A stretch of DNA of 46,545 bases, taken from positions 1 to 46,545 of the forward strand of contig JBHPEK010000004.1 of assembly GCA_042577045.1 (NCBI GenBank), written 5' to 3'. This document shows positions 27,733 to 46,124 of the stretch, in pieces; position 1 is the stretch's first letter; each line of letters opens with the position of its first letter. Made by a program: the position numbers and the translations under genes. Source of the DNA: Patescibacteria group bacterium (GTDB lineage: Bacteria > Patescibacteriota > Minisyncoccia > JAHISW01 > Tagabacteraceae). The notes beneath the pieces were generated by a model. That model ran no database searches, was not told the origin of the DNA, and saw nothing but the letters and a program-made list of their open reading frames with translations.

Positions 27733-27767
27733 TACACCTACACGATACTCGGTATCGTGTAGGTGTA
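27733..27767. repeat. Palindrome of the CTACACGATAC family (opposite orientation), 16-bp stem
   Basis: tacacctacacgatac-tcg-gtatcgtgtaggtgta. Confidence 0.9.
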
Positions 27768-27889: not shown

Positions 27890-30800
27890 ATGAATAGTTT
27901 TTTAAAAAATAACTTTAAAATTATCTGTTTTATTGTTTTTTTGAGTGTTTTTTCTTTTTCAATTTTTATTGATTATTCTAGTGCGCAAGGCAAGGGTGGC
28001 GGACAAGAAGTGAACTTAGTTTTAAGTCATATCGAATGCGCTGAGGAGCAAGGGCAGGTTGAATTCCATTTTGTTGTTAATCACCTTGATAAAGATGCTA
28101 GTGATTTTGGCACGGTTAGCTACACAGTTAATAGTCAAAATTTTACGGCGGATTTTGATAAGCTTACAGGCAAAACTGCTCATTATTTAAGCTATATTTC
28201 CTATACGAGCTCCAGCTATGATGTTTCCAGTGCAAGCGTGACTGTTGAGGGAGAAGCCTTAACTTTGCACAACCTACAAAATAAAGAATTATCCTGCCAA
28301 ACAGAGGTAGACCTATCTATTTCTAAAACAGTTGATAATGCAAGCCCCTCCGCAGGCGATACAATCACTTATACAATAACTGTGCAAAACAACAGTAGCT
28401 TTGGCACAGAAAATGTTATTGCCGAGGATCAACTGCCTGCTGGAATTACTTATCAATCACACAGCACCTCGCAGGGTAGTTATGATCAAGGAAGTGGTGC
28501 GTGGAATATAGGACAGCTAAACGACTCTTCTTCTGCCACGCTTGATATTACTGTTTTAGTTGACGATTCTTCTGCGGGTATGGATATAGAAAATGTTGGA
28601 AGTGTTGTTTCTTCAGATACGCCGGATTCATCTTTGGAAAACAATTATGATGATGCGCTTATCACAATAAGCTTTATTGCGCCAGTTGCCCATGACGATG
28701 ATTATTCAGTTGATGAGGATGAAATTCTGCATATTGATGCTCCAGGTCCTTTATCTAATGATGAACATATTGACCAAGGGGCAATTACCGCTGTTATTGC
28801 CAATCATCCATCTCATGGAGAAATAACTTTTCATGACAGTGGAGAATTTACATACACGCCTGCAGAAGATTATAACGGCACAGACAGTTTTACTTATGAA
28901 GTTTGTGGGGATCACTCTTTGTGCAATACAGCAACCGTGGCGATTACAATTAATTCTGTTAACGATGCGCCCGTAGCAAGTGGTGATTTGGCTACTACTG
29001 TGGAAGGTCAGCCGGTCACGATAAATGTTATACATGATGACCACGACGTAGATGATAATTTAGACCCGTCTTCTGTATCTATTGTTGATTTACCTACGAA
29101 TGGCATCGCGGTACCAAATACAGATGGAACTGTTGTTTATACTCCAAATGATGGTTTTGTGGGAACAGATATTTTTACTTATAGTGTGTGTGATACAGAA
29201 GGCCTGTGTAGTGAAGTATCTTCCGAAGTATCAGTTTTGGTTTTAAGCGAAGAAGGAGCTTCGTTGATTGCTGTTGGTGATCTTACTACTATAGATGAAG
29301 GATCTTCAGCGATAATTTCTGTTTTGCTTAATGATATATATACGGGCGAAGGCGAACTTTATCTTGACTCAATTTTAGAATCCCCAACACATGGCGAGAT
29401 TACTATAAACGAAGGTGGGACTATTACTTATACACCAGAGGAAGATTTTTTTGGCACAGATTATTTTACTTATGTTGTTTGTGATAATCTAGATCCACAA
29501 ATTTGCGCCGAATCAGATGAAGGGACTATTACAGTAAATGGCGTCAATGATGCTCCGATTGCAAATGATGATGTTGTTGCTATTGAAGAAAACGAGACAA
29601 TAGTTATCCATGTTACCCATGATGATATTGATATGGACAACAACCTAGACGAAACTTCACTTTCTTTGGAAAGTAGCCCAAGCAGTGGTACTGCCGAAGC
29701 ACACATTGATGGAACCATCTCTTACACACCCCACAAAGATTACACTGGAAGCGACGAATTTATGTATAAAATTTGCGATGAAGGAGAAATGTGCGATACA
29801 GCGAGGGTCTCTGTTTCAATTATAGGAGCAGTTCATGCGCCTACGGCAAACAATGACTATATTTCTGTAATTGGTAGCGAATCCGTCCAAATAAATGTTT
29901 TAGAAAATGATGAGAGTGAAAGTGGTAATTTATATGTAGACAGGATTTTGAATGATGCTCTTTTCGGAACATCTGTTTTAAATGGCGACAATACGATTAC
30001 GTATACGCCAAATGAAGAATATTATGGGGAGGATGAAATTGTATATATTGCTTGCTCTGAACCTGATGTTTGCGCTCAAGCGGAAATATTTATTACGGTA
30101 AGCGAAATGAATCATGCGCCAGAGGCCCATGATGATATTGCTAGTACTTTCAAAAACGAAACTGTTGTTATTAATGTTATCCATGATGATATTGATGTAG
30201 ATAATAATATAGATCCATCTTCTGTTTCTATAACAAGTGGTGTTATGAATGGCAGGCTTACCGAAAATGATGATGGAACAATTTCTTATACTCCTGATCC
30301 AGGTTTTGGCGGAACAGATACTTTTAAATATAAAGTTTGTGACACAGATGGTTTGTGTAGCGAAGTTCACGCTACTGTAGAGGTGTCGGTAATAGAAAAA
30401 CCCAAGACTAATACTAGTGGTTCGGGTGGTGGAGGTGGGGGGTCTTCCATCGTCGTTCCTATAGGAATAGATGACGAAGGGAGTGTTTTTCGTCATGAAG
30501 TTTTACTAGTTGATCCACTGGCGAATGATTTGCCACTCAATAGTTCATATTTGTTTGTTTCTCGTATTTCGTATGAGCCACTTTATGGAACGGTTGAAAT
30601 AAATGAAGATAATACTATTTCTTATTTTCCAGACGGAGAGTATGTTGGAGTAGACAGATTTGATTATGTAGTCTGTGATTCAAGGGTAAGCAGGCTTTGT
30701 TCGGACGCTGAGGTGGTAGTTACTGTTTCTGAGGATGACACAGCGCCGATTGCTCAAGATGATTTTGTGAGTGTTCATGAAAATGGCTCAGCTGAAATTG

Positions 30801-31597
30801 ATGTGTTAATAGATGATTTTGATTTGGAGAAAAATATTGATACGGAAACTTTAAAAATAATTTCTTTCCCAACAAACGGAACGGCAAAAATAACAGATAG
30901 TGGAATTATAATGTATACAGCAAATGAAAATTTTGTTGGACTGGATGGGTTGGAGTATTTAGTTTGTGATACAGAAGATAAATGTGACACCGCAACAGTC
31001 ACTTTTGATGTTTTTGCAGGTAATCATTTGTTGGATGCCGAAGGACACAAAGAATGCGAGGACTATTTAAAAAAGTATATTAAGATTGGCGCAGAAAATG
31101 ATTATGAGGAAGTTAAAAAAATGCAAAAATTCTTAATTTTCTATGAAAATAGGATGGACGCCGATATGAATGGAATTTTTGACCAACATCATTGTGACAT
31201 TGTGCTTGAATTCCAAAGTAAATATGCAGAAGATATTTTAGAGCCATGGGGATTAGAAAAACCTACTGGTTATGTTTACGAAACAACAATTAAAAAAATC
31301 AATGAACTTTATTGTTTTGCATCCTGCCGCCCTTATTTAACTGACTTCATAAAATACAGGGGGCAAAATGATGCAAATCAAGTTAAAAAGCTTCAAAAGT
31401 TTTTGAAAGATTATGAGGGGCACGAAGGAGTTGTAGAAACCGGCATTTATGACAAAATAACTTACGATGCAGTGTTAAATTTTCAGAAAAAATATTCTAA
31501 GGACATTTTGGGCTACTGGAGCTTGGCACAACCAACCGGGTATGTTTATAAAACAACAGTAAAAAAAATAAACGAACTTTATTGCAAGAATAAGTAG
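27890..31597 (+). CDS. Large surface protein: DUF11-like domain, tandem ~95-aa Ig/cadherin-like repeats, two C-terminal peptidoglycan-binding-like repeats
   Basis: Signal peptide; 'DLSISKTVD...GDTITYTITV.N'; repeated 'NDAP.A..D...YTP...F.GTD.F.Y.VCD'; two copies of 'VKK.QKFL...G.FD....V..FQ.KY..DIL..W.L..PTGYVY.TT.KKINELYC'. Confidence 0.88.
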   Translation: MNSFLKNNFKIICFIVFLSVFSFSIFIDYSSAQGKGGGQEVNLVLSHIECAEEQGQVEFHFVVNHLDKDASDFGTVSYTVNSQNFTADFDKLTGKTAHYLSYISYTSSSYDVSSASVTVEGEALTLHNLQNKELSCQTEVDLSISKTVDNASPSAGDTITYTITVQNNSSFGTENVIAEDQLPAGITYQSHSTSQGSYDQGSGAWNIGQLNDSSSATLDITVLVDDSSAGMDIENVGSVVSSDTPDSSLENNYDDALITISFIAPVAHDDDYSVDEDEILHIDAPGPLSNDEHIDQGAITAVIANHPSHGEITFHDSGEFTYTPAEDYNGTDSFTYEVCGDHSLCNTATVAITINSVNDAPVASGDLATTVEGQPVTINVIHDDHDVDDNLDPSSVSIVDLPTNGIAVPNTDGTVVYTPNDGFVGTDIFTYSVCDTEGLCSEVSSEVSVLVLSEEGASLIAVGDLTTIDEGSSAIISVLLNDIYTGEGELYLDSILESPTHGEITINEGGTITYTPEEDFFGTDYFTYVVCDNLDPQICAESDEGTITVNGVNDAPIANDDVVAIEENETIVIHVTHDDIDMDNNLDETSLSLESSPSSGTAEAHIDGTISYTPHKDYTGSDEFMYKICDEGEMCDTARVSVSIIGAVHAPTANNDYISVIGSESVQINVLENDESESGNLYVDRILNDALFGTSVLNGDNTITYTPNEEYYGEDEIVYIACSEPDVCAQAEIFITVSEMNHAPEAHDDIASTFKNETVVINVIHDDIDVDNNIDPSSVSITSGVMNGRLTENDDGTISYTPDPGFGGTDTFKYKVCDTDGLCSEVHATVEVSVIEKPKTNTSGSGGGGGGSSIVVPIGIDDEGSVFRHEVLLVDPLANDLPLNSSYLFVSRISYEPLYGTVEINEDNTISYFPDGEYVGVDRFDYVVCDSRVSRLCSDAEVVVTVSEDDTAPIAQDDFVSVHENGSAEIDVLIDDFDLEKNIDTETLKIISFPTNGTAKITDSGIIMYTANENFVGLDGLEYLVCDTEDKCDTATVTFDVFAGNHLLDAEGHKECEDYLKKYIKIGAENDYEEVKKMQKFLIFYENRMDADMNGIFDQHHCDIVLEFQSKYAEDILEPWGLEKPTGYVYETTIKKINELYCFASCRPYLTDFIKYRGQNDANQVKKLQKFLKDYEGHEGVVETGIYDKITYDAVLNFQKKYSKDILGYWSLAQPTGYVYKTTVKKINELYCKNK

Positions 31598-31622: not shown

Positions 31623-31659
31623 TTGGGACTACACGATACCGAGTATCGTGTAGTTGTGT
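31623..31659 (+). repeat. 37-bp palindromic direct repeat, left boundary of the DGR cassette
   Basis: ttgggactacacgataccgagtatcgtgtagttgtgt, identical to 34607-34643. Confidence 0.93.
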
Positions 31660-31903: not shown

Positions 31904-32515
31904 ATGAAATACGGTGAATTGAATTTCGGACAAGTGGAAGCAATCGTCAACAAGCTCGGTGGTATGGAGGGAGTTGATCGCTTTCTCCGCGGAGAAACCA
32001 CGATCTCCGAACCGGAGCACTCTTGGCGCGAACAAGACGGCGTAATCTACTTCTCGGTCACCAGCGACGGTACAACCGGTGAGGAATGGATCAAGCGTCT
32101 GGAAAGCAAGGGCTTCCGCGTAAGCGACTACGCCAAAAGCGTACTGCGTTCCTCGGACTTCAGGCCGACCGATGGAGTGAAGACCGAAATCGTTGTTCTT
32201 AAGGGAATGCTGTTCTCGGACAAGAATCGTGTAACGAAGAAGATCCGTGCCGAGGCCGACAAGCGAAAGCTCACCAAGCCGAACACCGAAGTCGCTTGTC
32301 TCATCCGTGAGAAGTTTACGGATGAGGAAATCGAAGCCATGGGTCTCTGGGGGATCGTCGCAATGCACGAGCCCATCAAGGATTCCGACGGTGATCCGAA
32401 CCTGCTCCTCGCGCTCCGGTATGGTGGCGGCAGGTGGCTCTACGCGTTTTGCGACTACCCTGGCCTCAGGTGGTTTCGTGGGCACGGGTTTGCCTTCGTC
32501 GCTTCGCAAGTATAG
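31904..32515 (+). CDS. DGR target (variable) protein, probable C-type-lectin-like C-terminus
   Basis: SD AAGGAG; 3' end carries the VR and ends in 'GFAFVASQV'; no signal peptide or TM seen; fold is inferred. Confidence 0.9.
   Translation: MKYGELNFGQVEAIVNKLGGMEGVDRFLRGETTISEPEHSWREQDGVIYFSVTSDGTTGEEWIKRLESKGFRVSDYAKSVLRSSDFRPTDGVKTEIVVLKGMLFSDKNRVTKKIRAEADKRKLTKPNTEVACLIREKFTDEEIEAMGLWGIVAMHEPIKDSDGDPNLLLALRYGGGRWLYAFCDYPGLRWFRGHGFAFVASQV
32383..32509 (+). repeat. DGR variable repeat (VR)
   Basis: 127-bp ungapped match to 32821-32947 with 18 mismatches, all opposite a TR adenine. Confidence 0.96.
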
Positions 32516-32541
32516 CGCTTAGCACTTTGACACTTAGTCCT

Positions 32542-32572
32542 AATCCCTATGTACCTTTGGTACATAGGGATT
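32542..32572. promoter_or_regulatory. Perfect hairpin downstream of VR (DGR target-recognition stem-loop and/or terminator)
   Basis: aatccctatgtacc-ttt-ggtacatagggatt, 14-bp stem, followed by a T run. Confidence 0.75.
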
Positions 32573-32820
32573 TTTTTGATAAAATAAAAATGGTACTAGG
32601 TGAATATGCGGACGGTAACGGCTTTCCGCTACCGAATCCAGTAATATGACAGATCGAGAATATTTCTGGCCACGGCTTGAAACAGAGTGATCTGTATGAA
32701 CTTTCAAAAAAGAAAATACTTGGTGTAAGATACTGGAGTATTTTAGATACCAAATAATATTCAGTCTTGAGATCGTTATGTGACTTCTATGGACAGTGGC
32801 ACAGAGGGTGTCTTACACAT

Positions 32821-32947
32821 TTCCGACGGTGATCCGAACCTGCTCAACGCGAACCGGAATGATGACGGCAGGTGGCTCAACGCGTATTACGACAACCCTG
32901 ACAACAGGTGGAATCGTGAGAACGGGTTTGCCTTCGTCGCTTCGCAA
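32821..32947 (+). ncRNA. DGR template repeat (TR)
   Basis: AAC/AAT-rich invariant copy of the VR (reads N A N R N D D ... in the VR frame). Confidence 0.95.
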
Positions 32948-32964
32948 CTCTTTTTTTTCTCTCC

Positions 32965-33312
32965 CTATTTGGGAGAGTTTTGTTTTGTTACGCTCCCATA
33001 CCATCCTCCGAGCATTTTTCCAATGCTGTCTAACTTTAATGAGAGAGCGATGTATTTTTTGTTGTCTAAAGTCTTAGTCTCCCAAAGAATCATTAGTAAG
33101 ATTTTCAATGTATCTAATTTCCGTATGGCGAGGCGAATATATGGTGCCTTTTCATTTTGTTTTAAAAAACTAGCGAAAGAAACTATTTCGATAGCATCGA
33201 TGAAATACTTATCTATTTTTTTACCCAGAGAGTGCCTGTGTAATTTAGGTAGATCTTTATAATAAGTAAACCACAACAAATATATCTCTTTTAACCTTTG
33301 CAACACTGGCAA
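32965..33312 (-). CDS. avd: Avd-like four-helix-bundle accessory protein
   Basis: Basic 115-aa helical protein, 'LPK..R.SLG..I', C-terminal 'IGKMLGGW'; lies between TR and RT; true start uncertain because of the G11 tract. Confidence 0.85.
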   Translation of the reverse strand: MPVLQRLKEIYLLWFTYYKDLPKLHRHSLGKKIDKYFIDAIEIVSFASFLKQNEKAPYIRLAIRKLDTLKILLMILWETKTLDNKKYIALSLKLDSIGKMLGGWYGSVTKQNSPK

Positions 33313-33319
33313 AAGTCTC

Positions 33320-33330
33320 GGGGGGGGGGG
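33320..33330. repeat. G11 homopolymer between avd and RT
   Basis: ctc-G11-tagtatt. Confidence 0.9.
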
Positions 33331-33343
33331 TAGTATTATAAGT

Positions 33344-34366
33344 ATGAGAAAGATTTTTATTCATACTTATAATGATATCATTTCTGTCGAAAATTTACTC
33401 GAAGGTTGGAGTGAATTTTTAGGGGGTAAACGTTCACGTGATGATGTACAGAAGTTTGAACAAAATTTGATGTTGAACATTATTGACTTACACAATGTTC
33501 TTGTTAATAAGACATATAAACATTCTAAGTATGAAGCTTTTAATATATCCGATCCTAAGCCACGAAATATACATAAAGCAAAGGTGAGAGATAGGTTATT
33601 GCACCATGCTATTTATAGAAAACTGTACCCGTTTTTTGATAGTAAGTTTATTGCTGATTCTTATTCTTGCAGAAATGAAAAAGGAACACATAGGGCAATA
33701 AACCGTTTAAGAGATTTTACACGTATTGTTTCCAAGAATAATACGAAGACAGTTTGGGTTTTAAAATGTGATATAAGGAAGTTTTTTGCCAGTATTGATC
33801 ACGAGGTTTTAATTAAAATTATCAACAAGTACATTTTAGACAAACAAATTATCTGGTTGTTGTCCGTAATTATAAGAAGTTTTCATGCAACAGAAAGAAA
33901 TGTTGGTTTACCGTTGGGCAACTTAACTTCACAATTGTTCGTAAATATATATATGAATGAATTCGATCAATTTATGAAGCATAAAATTAAAGCAAAATAT
34001 TATATCCGATATGCTGATGATTTTGTGATATTGTCTCATTACAAGGATTGGCTTGAGTTATTATTGCCACAAATAAAAACTTTTCTCAGCGAAGAACTAA
34101 AATTGGAATTACATCCGAAAAAAGTATCAATAGAAACTATTGCATCAGGAGTAGATTTTCTTGGGTGGATTCATTTTCCTAGGTACAGGATATTAAGAAC
34201 GGTGACAAAGAGACGTATATTTCGTGGGATACAAGACAAAAACGCGAAACCTAAGACTGTCCAGTCTTATCTTGGTTTAATAAGTCATGGTAATAGCAAA
34301 AAGATACAACAAAAGATAGAAAATTTTATTTGCGAAATTAACTCATTCTATTTTGTTGAAAAATAA
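33344..34366 (+). CDS. DGR reverse transcriptase
   Basis: 'PKPRNI', 'RDRLLHHA', 'LKCDIRKFFASIDH', 'GLPLGNLTSQ', YADD, 'DFLGW'; 340 aa with no maturase or endonuclease extension. Confidence 0.96.
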   Translation: MRKIFIHTYNDIISVENLLEGWSEFLGGKRSRDDVQKFEQNLMLNIIDLHNVLVNKTYKHSKYEAFNISDPKPRNIHKAKVRDRLLHHAIYRKLYPFFDSKFIADSYSCRNEKGTHRAINRLRDFTRIVSKNNTKTVWVLKCDIRKFFASIDHEVLIKIINKYILDKQIIWLLSVIIRSFHATERNVGLPLGNLTSQLFVNIYMNEFDQFMKHKIKAKYYIRYADDFVILSHYKDWLELLLPQIKTFLSEELKLELHPKKVSIETIASGVDFLGWIHFPRYRILRTVTKRRIFRGIQDKNAKPKTVQSYLGLISHGNSKKIQQKIENFICEINSFYFVEK

Positions 34367-34606: not shown

Positions 34607-34643
34607 TTGGGACTACACGATACCGAGTATCGTGTAGTTGTGT
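34607..34643 (+). repeat. 37-bp palindromic direct repeat, right boundary of the DGR cassette
   Basis: Identical to 31623-31659. Confidence 0.93.
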
Positions 34644-44099: not shown

Positions 44100-46124
44100 A
44101 TGTTCAAGTTTAGGGTTTTCTCAACTCTATTTATAATTTTCTTAATTTACATTTTTGGTGTAAGTGGTGTTTTTGCAGACACCACTGCTACTTTACGACC
44201 AATTGCTGATGGTGGAGAGGATAGTGCTAACTGGGCTAATACTGGCAGTACTGCTTGTGATGCAACTGATTGTTATACGGAGGTAGATGAATTGGCTGGG
44301 GCTTCCTGTACCGACAGCGATGGAGACACATCTTATATTGAAACTAGCAATGGCAAGGAGGGACAAACATTTGATATAGATGTTTCTAGTATTACAGACG
44401 ATTCCATAATAACTCAAATTGATATCACTTTTTGTGGCATTCGCGGGCAAGCGGGTTCAGGCGTTAAAACAAGGCAATGTATTGATGGTTCTTGTTCTAA
44501 TGCCGATGTTAGTGCGTCTCTTACAGATGCTTATGCTGAAACAACACAATCTTTTACAGGGTTAAGTGTTGTAAAAAGTGTAAGTACAGATGTTGAAATA
44601 GGTATTTTAAATGTTGCCCCGAAAATTTCTAGGATAAGCCAAGTTTCGGCTGTTATAACATATACACCGCCAGATACCACTGCGCCAAGTGCCGTGGCGG
44701 ACTTAGCAACTTCAGGTGCTTCCCAAAATTCCATAAGTCTTACTTGGACAGCACCCGGAGATGATGCTGGCTCGGGAACTGCCACCACATATGATGTACG
44801 CTATTCCACAGCCACCATCAACGATGGAAACTGGGGATTAGCCACTCAAGCCACAGGTGAACCATCTCCATCTGTTGCCGGTTCTTCAGAATCTTTCACC
44901 GTTACAGGTCTTTCACCATCAACCACATATTACTTTGCAATCAAGACATCGGATGAAGTTCCAAATGAGTCTGCTATTTCTAATGTGGATAGTCTAGCGA
45001 CTACAGCAACCCCAGACACCACAGCACCATCTGCCGTGTCTGACCTTGCTGCATCAGGAGCAAGCAACAACTCCATAGACCTAGATTGGACAGCGCCCGG
45101 AGATGATGCTGGCTCGGGAACTGCGACGAGTTATGATGTGAGATATTCTACTGCAGACATCACAGATGATACAGATTTTAATAATGCCACTCAAGCCACA
45201 GGTGAACCATCTCCATCTGTTGCCGGTTCTTCAGAATCTTTCACCGTTACAGGTCTTTCACCATCAACCACATATTACTTTGCAATCAAGACATCAGATG
45301 AAGTTCCAAATGAGTCAGCTGTTTCAAATGTACCAAGCGATACAACAAGCGAAGAAAGTTCTATCGTTATCACGGGTGATAGTGGTGGTGGAGGTGTGGC
45401 AGCCACAATGGTTGTTTTTGGAGGGCAGGCGTATCCTGGAAGTGAAATTATAGTGCAATTTAAAGACAGCTTAAACAACCAGTTTAGGAATGTTCCTTTG
45501 TCCACTTACCAAATGGAAAATGATGGAAAATTTTACATTTCTTACATGGCATTTCTTTCTGGAAAATATTTTTTTAGCCTAAAAGCCCAAGACAAATTAG
45601 GACAAACAACTGGCATAAAGTCTTACAATGTAGATTTTAATTCTGAGAAGAGTTTAATAGTTGAGGATATACTTTTTCCTCCAACCTTGAATTTTGGAAA
45701 CGGTGTTTATACTTTGAACGAAGATATTAATATTTCTGGGTATTCCACAGCTCATTCCAAGATAAATTTGAGTATTGATGATATAATTAAAAAAGAGACA
45801 ACTTCTGACAAAGATGGTTGTTATCAGTTTGTTTTTAGTCCTAGCGAGTTGGAGGTTGGAGATTATTTTGCAAAAGTTAGCCAAACATCTGTGGGTGGAG
45901 AAGAGAGTGGTTTTTCTTTTCCTCGGGCTTTCAGAATTTCCTCATTAAGTTTCCCTCGCGCAGATTTTAATAAAGATAACGGCATAAACATAACGGACTG
46001 GAGTATATTTTTATACAGGTGGGGTTCAGAGGAGGAGTCTCTCAAACGAACCATAGATTTAGATGATAATGGCCAAGTTAATATTATAGACTTTAGTATC
46101 TTTTTAAAAAATATAAATATCTAG
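44100..46124 (+). CDS. Secreted protein with two FN3 repeats and a C-terminal dockerin-like domain
   Basis: Two copies of 'WTAPGDD..SGTA..YDVRYS...GLSPSTTYYFAIK'; paired Ca-binding loops DFNKDNGINITD and DLDDNGQVNIID. Confidence 0.85.
   Translation: MFKFRVFSTLFIIFLIYIFGVSGVFADTTATLRPIADGGEDSANWANTGSTACDATDCYTEVDELAGASCTDSDGDTSYIETSNGKEGQTFDIDVSSITDDSIITQIDITFCGIRGQAGSGVKTRQCIDGSCSNADVSASLTDAYAETTQSFTGLSVVKSVSTDVEIGILNVAPKISRISQVSAVITYTPPDTTAPSAVADLATSGASQNSISLTWTAPGDDAGSGTATTYDVRYSTATINDGNWGLATQATGEPSPSVAGSSESFTVTGLSPSTTYYFAIKTSDEVPNESAISNVDSLATTATPDTTAPSAVSDLAASGASNNSIDLDWTAPGDDAGSGTATSYDVRYSTADITDDTDFNNATQATGEPSPSVAGSSESFTVTGLSPSTTYYFAIKTSDEVPNESAVSNVPSDTTSEESSIVITGDSGGGGVAATMVVFGGQAYPGSEIIVQFKDSLNNQFRNVPLSTYQMENDGKFYISYMAFLSGKYFFSLKAQDKLGQTTGIKSYNVDFNSEKSLIVEDILFPPTLNFGNGVYTLNEDINISGYSTAHSKINLSIDDIIKKETTSDKDGCYQFVFSPSELEVGDYFAKVSQTSVGGEESGFSFPRAFRISSLSFPRADFNKDNGINITDWSIFLYRWGSEEESLKRTIDLDDNGQVNIIDFSIFLKNINI

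Follow-up and report, generated by a model that had tools for sequence, protein, structure and literature searches.

Why should an intact diversity-generating retroelement (DGR) carry a gene, avd, whose upstream start codon is out of frame with the protein it should encode? The question is raised by a stretch of 46,545 nt from a Patescibacteria group bacterium (assembly GCA_042577045.1, contig JBHPEK010000004.1), which is referred to here as the window. Its DGR encodes Avd on the minus strand, between the template repeat (TR) and the reverse transcriptase (RT), and a run of 11 identical bases leaves the upstream ATG and the Avd core one base out of register. Because most of the related cassettes have a length-variable repeat at the same spot, the tract is likely a random, heritable on/off switch for hypermutation. 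As judged from sequence comparison, the probability is roughly 0.78 that translation of Avd from a leaderless ATG is subject to slipped-strand phase variation that would gate retrohoming, with the window representing the OFF state.

Reading frame of avd in the window

The elements around the tract are as follows.

32965..33312, minus strand: Avd core, 115 codons from a TTG, Pfam family PF22296
33313..33364, minus strand: avd 5' extension from the upstream ATG (33364-33362) through the tract, in line with the frame test in relatives
33320..33330, minus strand: simple sequence repeat (SSR), C11 on the avd strand and G11 on the plus strand
33331..33336, plus strand: TAGTAT, a -10-like hexamer directly adjoining the tract and 7 nt ahead of the RT ATG, a candidate leaderless RT promoter
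33344..34366, plus strand: reverse transcriptase of 340 aa with a YADD motif, intact, its start 3' of the tract
33372..33380, minus strand: TG-n-TATCAT, an extended -10-like element within RT codons 10-13 and 7 nt ahead of the avd ATG, a candidate leaderless avd promoter

The upstream ATG at 33364 lies 52 nt from the TTG codon and one base out of frame with the Avd core, and a TGA in frame with the avd open reading frame (ORF) is located at 33363-33361 on the minus strand. Read as it stands, the ATG opens a dead-end ORF of 35 codons (33364-33257). With the RT starting at 33344, the 5' ends of avd and RT overlap head to head by 21 nt. An earlier analysis made from the letters alone (the sequence-only reading) had described the G11 tract, the minus-strand avd with its TTG start and upstream stop, the out-of-frame ATG at 33364 and the 21-nt overlap with RT, and every coordinate holds on re-reading. 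No G/C run in the 579-kb genome is longer than G11; the other runs of at least 7 are ten of 7 and one of 8. No public sequencing run holding the window's strain was found (best share 0.15), no RNA run with it was listed, and there is a slight chance that the assembly's own count of G11 is off by one.

The Avd ORF matches PF22296 with 40.8 bits (cut-off 40), and the predicted structure of an in-frame relative, P0007 (86% identical), fits the Avd of BPP-1 (4DWL/8UB7) with TM scores of 0.76-0.92 and an rmsd of 1.3 to 4DWL. Avd chains were the best fold matches of this model (E 1e-3 to 8e-3, probability 1.0); a PDB sequence search with the Avd alignment gave no match. The RT matches PF00078 (E 6.7e-26). 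A second, complementing avd was not found in the genome, which is 81% complete.

A repeat at the same site in related loci

Two sets of related loci were compared. Set 1 combined the top 80 genome matches (of 417), the top 80 metagenome matches (of 416) and 29 loci from 100 related genomes; including the window, it comprised 190 loci, 152 of them usable, which formed 134 clusters at 97% avd identity (distinct loci). The 38 loci dropped were without a divergent RT 5' end (14), had an Avd of less than 50% identity (19), remained unaligned (3), contained a gap (1) or were without avd (1). For the more distant set 2, to which a narrower repeat rule was applied, 74 loci were examined, of which 61 were usable and 59 distinct; 23 had already been seen earlier. 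The closest named loci are from Patescibacteria, and only 2 relatives were found on viral contigs. All loci stem from metagenome assemblies. They were chosen by best Avd match, which favours intact cores, not intact RT genes or intact pairs of TR and variable repeat (VR), and since related loci are not independent, the p-values given below overstate significance.

A simple repeat between the position of the upstream ATG and the Avd core is present in 113 of the 134 set-1 clusters, as a C run of 7-13 in 93 and as a longer unit in 20. C runs of at least 7 occupy this site in 95 of the 134 distinct loci, compared with 8 G/C runs that long elsewhere in these loci (806,846 bases). Across both sets the units are C, GA, CA, CT, CAAC, GCCA, CAAT, ACGA, GTCA, ACAG and 7-mers, with CA, CT, GA and ACAG added by set 2. 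With units of 3, 6 and 9 allowed, the unit is not a multiple of three in 112 of the 113 set-1 repeats, and the one exception is weak (2.5 copies). L195 has a compound tract of CA units followed by GA units, and the GA tracts of L194 and L210 reach 37-39 nt. Selection for poly-proline as the reason for the C run was rejected, as the repeat-less loci L020, L081 and L068 keep the prolines with mixed codons or drop them, and the other repeat units encode other residues. The N-terminal residues before the tract are the exact antisense of the first RT codons, and their conservation alone is therefore no evidence of an avd start; the frame and synonymous-codon tests are.

For the frame test, RT codon 7 served as the anchor of each locus, from which the distance to the Avd core was measured. 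Since the ATG at 33364 lies antisense to RT His7, its mere presence proves nothing. Among the 97 set-1 clusters with an ATG at the homologous spot, it is in frame with the core in 15 of the 17 repeat-less ones and in 24 of the 80 that bear a repeat (Fisher p 1.2e-5). The repeat-bearing clusters are spread over the three frames as 24/31/25 (offsets 0, +1 and +2), without departure from even thirds (p 0.58). Set 2 gave the same picture, with an in-frame ATG in 12/13 repeat-less versus 12/46 repeat-bearing loci (p 2.4e-5). The in-frame share is 13/13 at C runs of 2-3 and about a quarter at runs of at least 7. Before the repeat, stop codons interrupt the frame of the ATG in 0 of 79 loci and the other two frames in 65 and 72; beyond the RT overlap, the corresponding numbers are 0, 12 and 56 of 77 loci. 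Loci without the ATG opposite His7 usually have another ATG before the tract. Given these offsets and ten or more repeat units, no single slippery sequence or fixed offset is common to the loci. The in-frame rule, the stop-free frame and the promoter signature described below together lead us to infer that the repeat lies inside the 5' coding end of avd, downstream of its start. By this comparison the repeat is genuine: its type is conserved, its length varies and its position is such that it would shift the avd frame. The locus has the sequence-level features of an SSR contingency locus.

The RT ATG of the window lies 13 nt downstream (3') of the tract, and the RT frame is independent of tract length. 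Gating of the RT reading frame was thus rejected for the window. In 122 of the 134 loci, an RT start is located between the position of the avd ATG and the tract; in some of the 12 that lack one, the tract might gate the RT frame.

Repeat-less loci are also scattered among close kin (L081, L020, L038), where they resemble locked-ON alleles. Distant cassettes of the same architecture (B3, see below), namely L178, L180, L181, L183, L191, L208, L217, L222, L230, L237 and L242, have no repeat and an in-frame ATG. The switch is therefore not universal in this architecture.

Tract length changes fast and the unit slowly

On a FastTree RT tree of 78 loci, the frame state requires 31 changes, as compared with 31.1 for shuffled labels, and the distinction between mono- and multinucleotide units requires 4 as compared with 12.1. 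Frame state is thus without tree signal in these data and the repeat unit appears as an inherited trait. Identical avd cores occur with unlike tract lengths in the pairs L093/L128 (C10 in frame, C11 out of frame), L023/L152 and L043/L115, and the near-identical genomes of L015 and L037 also differ at the tract. One member of the GCCA family is in frame and three are out of frame, a split that homopolymer error cannot produce. Genome G178 has two paralogues of 97.9% identity whose CA tracts measure 27 and 21 nt.

Among public runs, the contigs of close relatives differ from the window's tract by -2 (run X1), +2 (X3, in frame) and 0 (X5). Run X2 contains two contigs with the same span, ends and mismatch count, whose tracts differ from the window by 0 and -1 (in frame) at depths of 4.4 and 5.7. 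Run X6 provided no cover, and the contigs of X4 and X7 do not span the tract. The X2 and X3 contigs also differ from the window at many VR positions (32400-32484), which fits diversification of this target within that lineage.

Proposed start of avd, candidate promoters and likely transcription units

On the avd strand, 92 of 97 relatives have a TAnnnT motif at precisely 7 nt upstream of the ATG, and 84 of 97 have the extended TG. A Shine-Dalgarno (SD)-like word precedes the upstream avd ATG in 0 of 97 loci. The promoter-like motif overlaps RT codons, whose usage is biased: Ile12 is ATC in 95/117 loci (29% background), His7 is CAT in 84/89 (60% background), and codon 11 specifies Asp, Asn, His, Tyr or Ser, yet its third-base T is kept. 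This synonymous-codon bias and the constant T point to a constraint on the nucleotides rather than on the RT protein. The genome-wide distribution of TAnnnT before start codons has a peak as well (51 at gap 6 versus 6-24 elsewhere, in a crude set of 347 ORFs). We infer that the avd mRNA is leaderless and starts at 33364. A second avd promoter at a TATAAT just before the tract was rejected as unconserved (at most 8/66 at any gap).

On the RT strand, 33 of 114 loci, including the window, have TAnnnT 7 nt upstream of the RT ATG, compared with 1-9 loci at other gaps, and this -10-like hexamer abuts the tract in 25 of 31 loci. A sigma-70 scan, which needs a -35 match, called neither of the two proposed promoters. 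The sequence-only reading had assumed a TR-RT transcript antisense to the avd mRNA. Such read-through is unsupported by the sequence, which has a terminator-like hairpin (32957-32977) after TR and the -10-like hexamer before the RT ATG; three units (TR RNA, avd and RT) are likely instead.

Two further observations concern start sites. Positions 33335-33347 and 33361-33373 form a perfect inverted repeat of 13 bp, so that the RT and avd start regions (7 nt plus ATG) are identical on their own strands. At L192 (G000:C3:46451-48049, minus strand), the 3' end of the 16S rRNA is without the canonical CCTCC anti-SD tail; despite this, SD-like 4-mers peak 5-9 nt before start codons genome-wide, and the DGR target gene has one.

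Integrity of out-of-frame cassettes

The Avd core is intact in 56/56 out-of-frame loci. Among the loci that could be assessed, RT is intact in 44/46 out-of-frame, 20/21 in-frame and 12/13 repeat-less ones, and an adenine-specific TR/VR pair is present in 47/48, 22/23 and 13/14, respectively. The TR/VR mismatches of out-of-frame loci fall at adenines in 722 cases and elsewhere in 27. Non-A mismatches are slightly commoner in frame (29/372) than out of frame (27/749; p 0.015), which is unexplained. By these measures the out-of-frame cassettes are not decayed.

Proposed mechanism and competing explanations

In the proposed mechanism, an extended -10 promoter inside the RT gene would drive a leaderless avd mRNA beginning at the ATG at 33364, and replication slippage would lengthen or shorten the tract one unit at a time. 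Every third length (10 or 13 in the window) would fuse the ATG to the Avd core, and lengths of 9, 11 or 12 would lead to a short dead-end peptide. Without Avd there would be no retrohoming, so that OFF cells would freeze the current target variant and ON cells would keep diversifying. This last step is extrapolated from BPP-1, in which, according to the available text of PMC12875486, avd nonsense mutations cut DGR repair to about 1e-9. Of 101 genomes of the class, 3 yielded a MutL, and searches of the window's own genome (81% complete) turned up no MutS and no MutL; such a scarcity of mismatch repair genes would favour slippage.

Several observations weigh against this mechanism. A TTG-started product of 115 aa would hold the whole predicted fold with all four helices; in the P0007 model, residues 1-16 are without secondary structure and of low confidence, and helix 1 starts at residue 17. 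TTG is enriched at core codon 1, where it accounts for 61 of 130 Leu codons (47%, versus 15% elsewhere); TTA, which is unable to start translation, is likewise enriched there. Another in-frame ATG exists in 9 of the 56 out-of-frame loci, and an in-frame ATG, GTG or TTG lies near the dead-end stop in 16. A TTG leak, re-initiation or +1 slippage could make the OFF state low, not zero. Two repeat-less loci, L123 and L159 (both C5), are out of frame. The avd -10 motif sits at gap 7 and the genome-wide peak at gap 6, and the X2 contig pair is longer than a pure one-base bubble and may represent two strains. No correlation of tract phase with TR/VR divergence was found, as in-frame and out-of-frame loci have equal shares of mutated adenines (medians of 0.5, p 0.73); this equality is expected of a fast switch, but it lends no support either. 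Finally, the requirement for Avd is carried over from BPP-1 by analogy, and DGR lineages without avd exist, as stated in the accessible part of Wu et al. (PMC5758913).

Some of these points would fit a situation in which Avd is made at any tract length, through a downstream TTG or GTG start, through re-initiation once the dead-end peptide has ended, or through +1 slippage of the ribosome or of transcription on the C run, with the tract acting as a dimmer or being a neutral, unstable linker. Besides the complete fold of the short TTG form and the TTG enrichment, a start-capable codon at core positions -2 to 5 in 37/56 out-of-frame loci is in line with this possibility, and CCC-C is a site prone to +1 shifts. 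However, about half of the loci have TTA, CTA, CTC, CTT, ATA or ATC as core codon 1, an SD-like word is present ahead of the TTG or GTG in 2/62, and start codons are no commoner out of frame (29/56) than in frame (9/24; p 0.33), with 11/17 in repeat-less loci. If the frame were irrelevant, repeat-less loci would not be in frame in 15/17 and 12/13 cases. Recoding, moreover, predicts one offset and one slippery sequence, whereas both offsets and ten or more units occur. Production of Avd irrespective of tract length is thus improbable. The tract-length switch suggested by the sequence-only reading is well supported by the repeat and frame statistics in relatives; ribosomal slippage, which that reading had offered alongside it, is unlikely as the main mechanism, because both out-of-frame offsets are about equally common and many relatives have 2-, 4- or 7-base units.

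Homopolymer sequencing or assembly errors in a gene that is truly in frame would be another explanation. Poly-G runs are error-prone, and the metagenomic origin of all loci, with no public run that holds the window's strain, leaves room for such errors. They do not account, however, for a repeat kept at one site in most loci or for the out-of-frame 2-, 4- and 7-base repeats of L045, L050, L120, L010, L051, L194 and L224, and an out-of-frame share of two thirds is far beyond any plausible error rate. In the same loci, 108 RT genes contain 37 other homopolymer runs and are intact, although this is a weak control, as the genes were picked as intact. Errors of this kind are hardly credible as the cause. 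One-way decay, in which the frameshift would be the first step in the pseudogenisation of costly DGRs, deserves no more credence. Homopolymer frameshifts are a common path to gene loss, but out-of-frame cassettes are as intact as in-frame ones with respect to RT and non-A mismatches, and the out-of-frame states are unclustered on the RT tree.

The tract could also act mainly on the opposite strand, where it lies upstream of the -10 box of a leaderless RT mRNA and would tune the -35/-10 spacing, as tracts do in Neisseria promoters of the porA/opc type. The -10-like motif at its fixed distance from the RT ATG in 33/114 loci and the position of this ATG exactly 13 nt from the tract in 32/94 loci agree with such a role. 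In the 31 C-tract loci with an RT-strand -10, the distance from the -10 to the core is 15-19 nt, with a dip at the in-frame length (8 loci at 16 nt, 2 at 17 nt, 9 at 18 nt), and 4/31 are in frame (p 0.009 versus one third). The subset was defined post hoc and is set apart from the remaining loci only at p 0.09; when loci are pooled, the share in frame (31/108) is not below one third (p 0.18). Furthermore, roughly half of the C-tract loci are without this -10, the hexamer located at -35 (most commonly TGGCAA) is a poor match and constrained by Avd codons, and the promoter scan did not call an RT promoter. Spacing also leaves unexplained why repeat-less loci are in frame and why some repeats extend over 40-80 nt. 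As the principal function of the tract, it is very unlikely; as an additional effect beside the frame switch, it is a tentative option. The dip at 17 nt is the basis for a similarly tentative combined reading, and not of the main claim. One repeat would then set both the Avd frame and the spacing of the leaderless RT promoter, and the fully active state would be a rare length depleted by selection. The target would diversify in bursts, and good variants would be locked by slipping OFF.

The DGR cassette and its surroundings

The cassette of the window is an intact DGR of the Patescibacteria type, with all parts present in the order target gene, VR, hairpin, TR, avd and RT. The parts upstream of avd are as follows.

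31904..32515, plus strand: DGR target gene of 203 aa, with VR at its 3' end
32383..32509, plus strand: VR of 127 nt, 18 mismatches to TR, 18/18 of them facing TR adenines
32542..32572, plus strand: hairpin 3' of VR, 14 pairs and a 3-nt loop with a T-run behind
32821..32947, plus strand: TR with 31 adenines, from the TR/VR comparison
32957..32977, plus strand: terminator-like hairpin with T-run directly 3' of TR, overlapping the avd stop, a consensus match only

The first hairpin is a DGR stem-loop and/or a terminator. The second comes from a terminator scan that found 2 candidates versus 0.6 in shuffled sequences. A Pfam scan assigned no family to the target protein, and its ESM Atlas neighbours are unnamed and mostly in Minisyncoccota clusters. 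A target paralogue (32%) without a TR match is located at C1:62352-62723. Between target and TR, about 300 nt (32516-32820) are without a convincing gene. Further RT genes at G000:C17:7675-8499 and G000:C6:26325-27221 are 49% and 37% identical to the DGR RT, and no avd was found beside either.

The inverted avd is a published CPR (Candidate Phyla Radiation) layout, not an oddity. The window has the order TR-(avd)-RT with avd on the reverse strand, which is architecture B3, and B3 makes up 90% of the CPR set in the available text of Wu et al. 2018 (PMC5758913). The statement of the sequence-only reading that avd is normally co-directional with RT is therefore untrue for this lineage.

Identical palindromic repeats of 37 nt flank the whole cassette (31623-31659 and 34607-34643), and their cores of 23-25 nt recur at 27738-27762 and on contigs C1, C3, C7 and C14. 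This element, which resembles repetitive extragenic palindromic sequences, may be a mark of cassette gain and loss or may favour them. Immediately upstream of the DGR, 27890-31597 encodes a protein of 1235 aa that looks adhesin-like by eye, being hydrophobic over an N-terminal stretch and having many repeats inside. Long direct repeats (146 nt at 97% and 162 nt at 74%, spacing about 345) are found at 44665-45331, inside an ORF of 674 aa (44100-46124).

Relation to known systems and significance

The related DGRs of CPR/Patescibacteria correspond to clade 2 of Roux et al. 2021 (PMC8144416). As far as the accessible parts of PMC5758913 and PMC8144416 describe CPR DGRs, these share with the window the gene order and strands, the adenine-specific TR/VR pair, a small target without known domain and the Avd fold. 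No repeat tract, frameshift or phase variation in avd was found in the available text of PMC8144416 or of PMC5758913, the latter including a term search of its supplement. A wider literature search also retrieved no report of a repeat tract or phase variation in avd, with the main paper on CPR DGRs (Paul et al. 2017) and most subscription papers outside its coverage. The layout is thus known; the avd repeat tract as a switch was not found in the literature searched, which does not prove its absence from print.

The tract shares with SSR contingency loci, such as the intragenic poly-G/C tracts of Campylobacter and Neisseria and the tetranucleotides of Haemophilus, the position just inside the 5' coding end, a unit that is not a multiple of three, length differences among close kin and one ON phase in three. 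In the literature available to us, the targets of those loci are mostly surface structures or DNA methyltransferases of host-associated pathogens. In the window, by contrast, the switched gene would belong to a second diversification system, in ultra-small bacteria that are uncultured; the repeat sits where two genes overlap head to head, and many units occur at the same site in relatives. Allele switching of mutL/mutS in Salmonella (Chen et al. 2010, PMC2955026, as far as accessible) likewise relies on slipped-strand repeat changes to switch the mutability of a population. There, loss of mismatch repair raises genome-wide mutation, whereas here a gain of frame would turn on a targeted, adenine-specific mutator of one gene. 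The BPP-1 DGR (Avd 4DWL; RT-Avd-RNA 8UB7) has the same four-helix Avd fold as modelled for P0007, and Avd is needed for retrohoming according to the available part of PMC12875486. It differs in having avd-TR-brt on one strand and avd RNA flanking TR; the avd of the window is inverted and downstream of TR.

If the tract acts as proposed, many CPR avd genes would be annotated with a wrong start or as broken. The finding also suggests phase variation in uncultured Patescibacteria, a subject on which the literature search found no paper. Roux et al. (PMC8144416) reported lower-than-average activity for DGR clades 2 and 3, with no such cause given in the accessible text, and the switch could explain part of the lower activity of clade 2. 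Since the phase of the tract is readable per molecule and comparable with VR diversity, the question is testable in existing metagenome reads. The control of DGR activity in nature is described as an open question and "an exciting frontier" in the available text of PMC12875486 (2026). A repeat-length switch would be a concrete answer for one of the most DGR-rich groups, and it would place two layers of evolvability on top of each other, with a contingency locus controlling a retroelement mutator.

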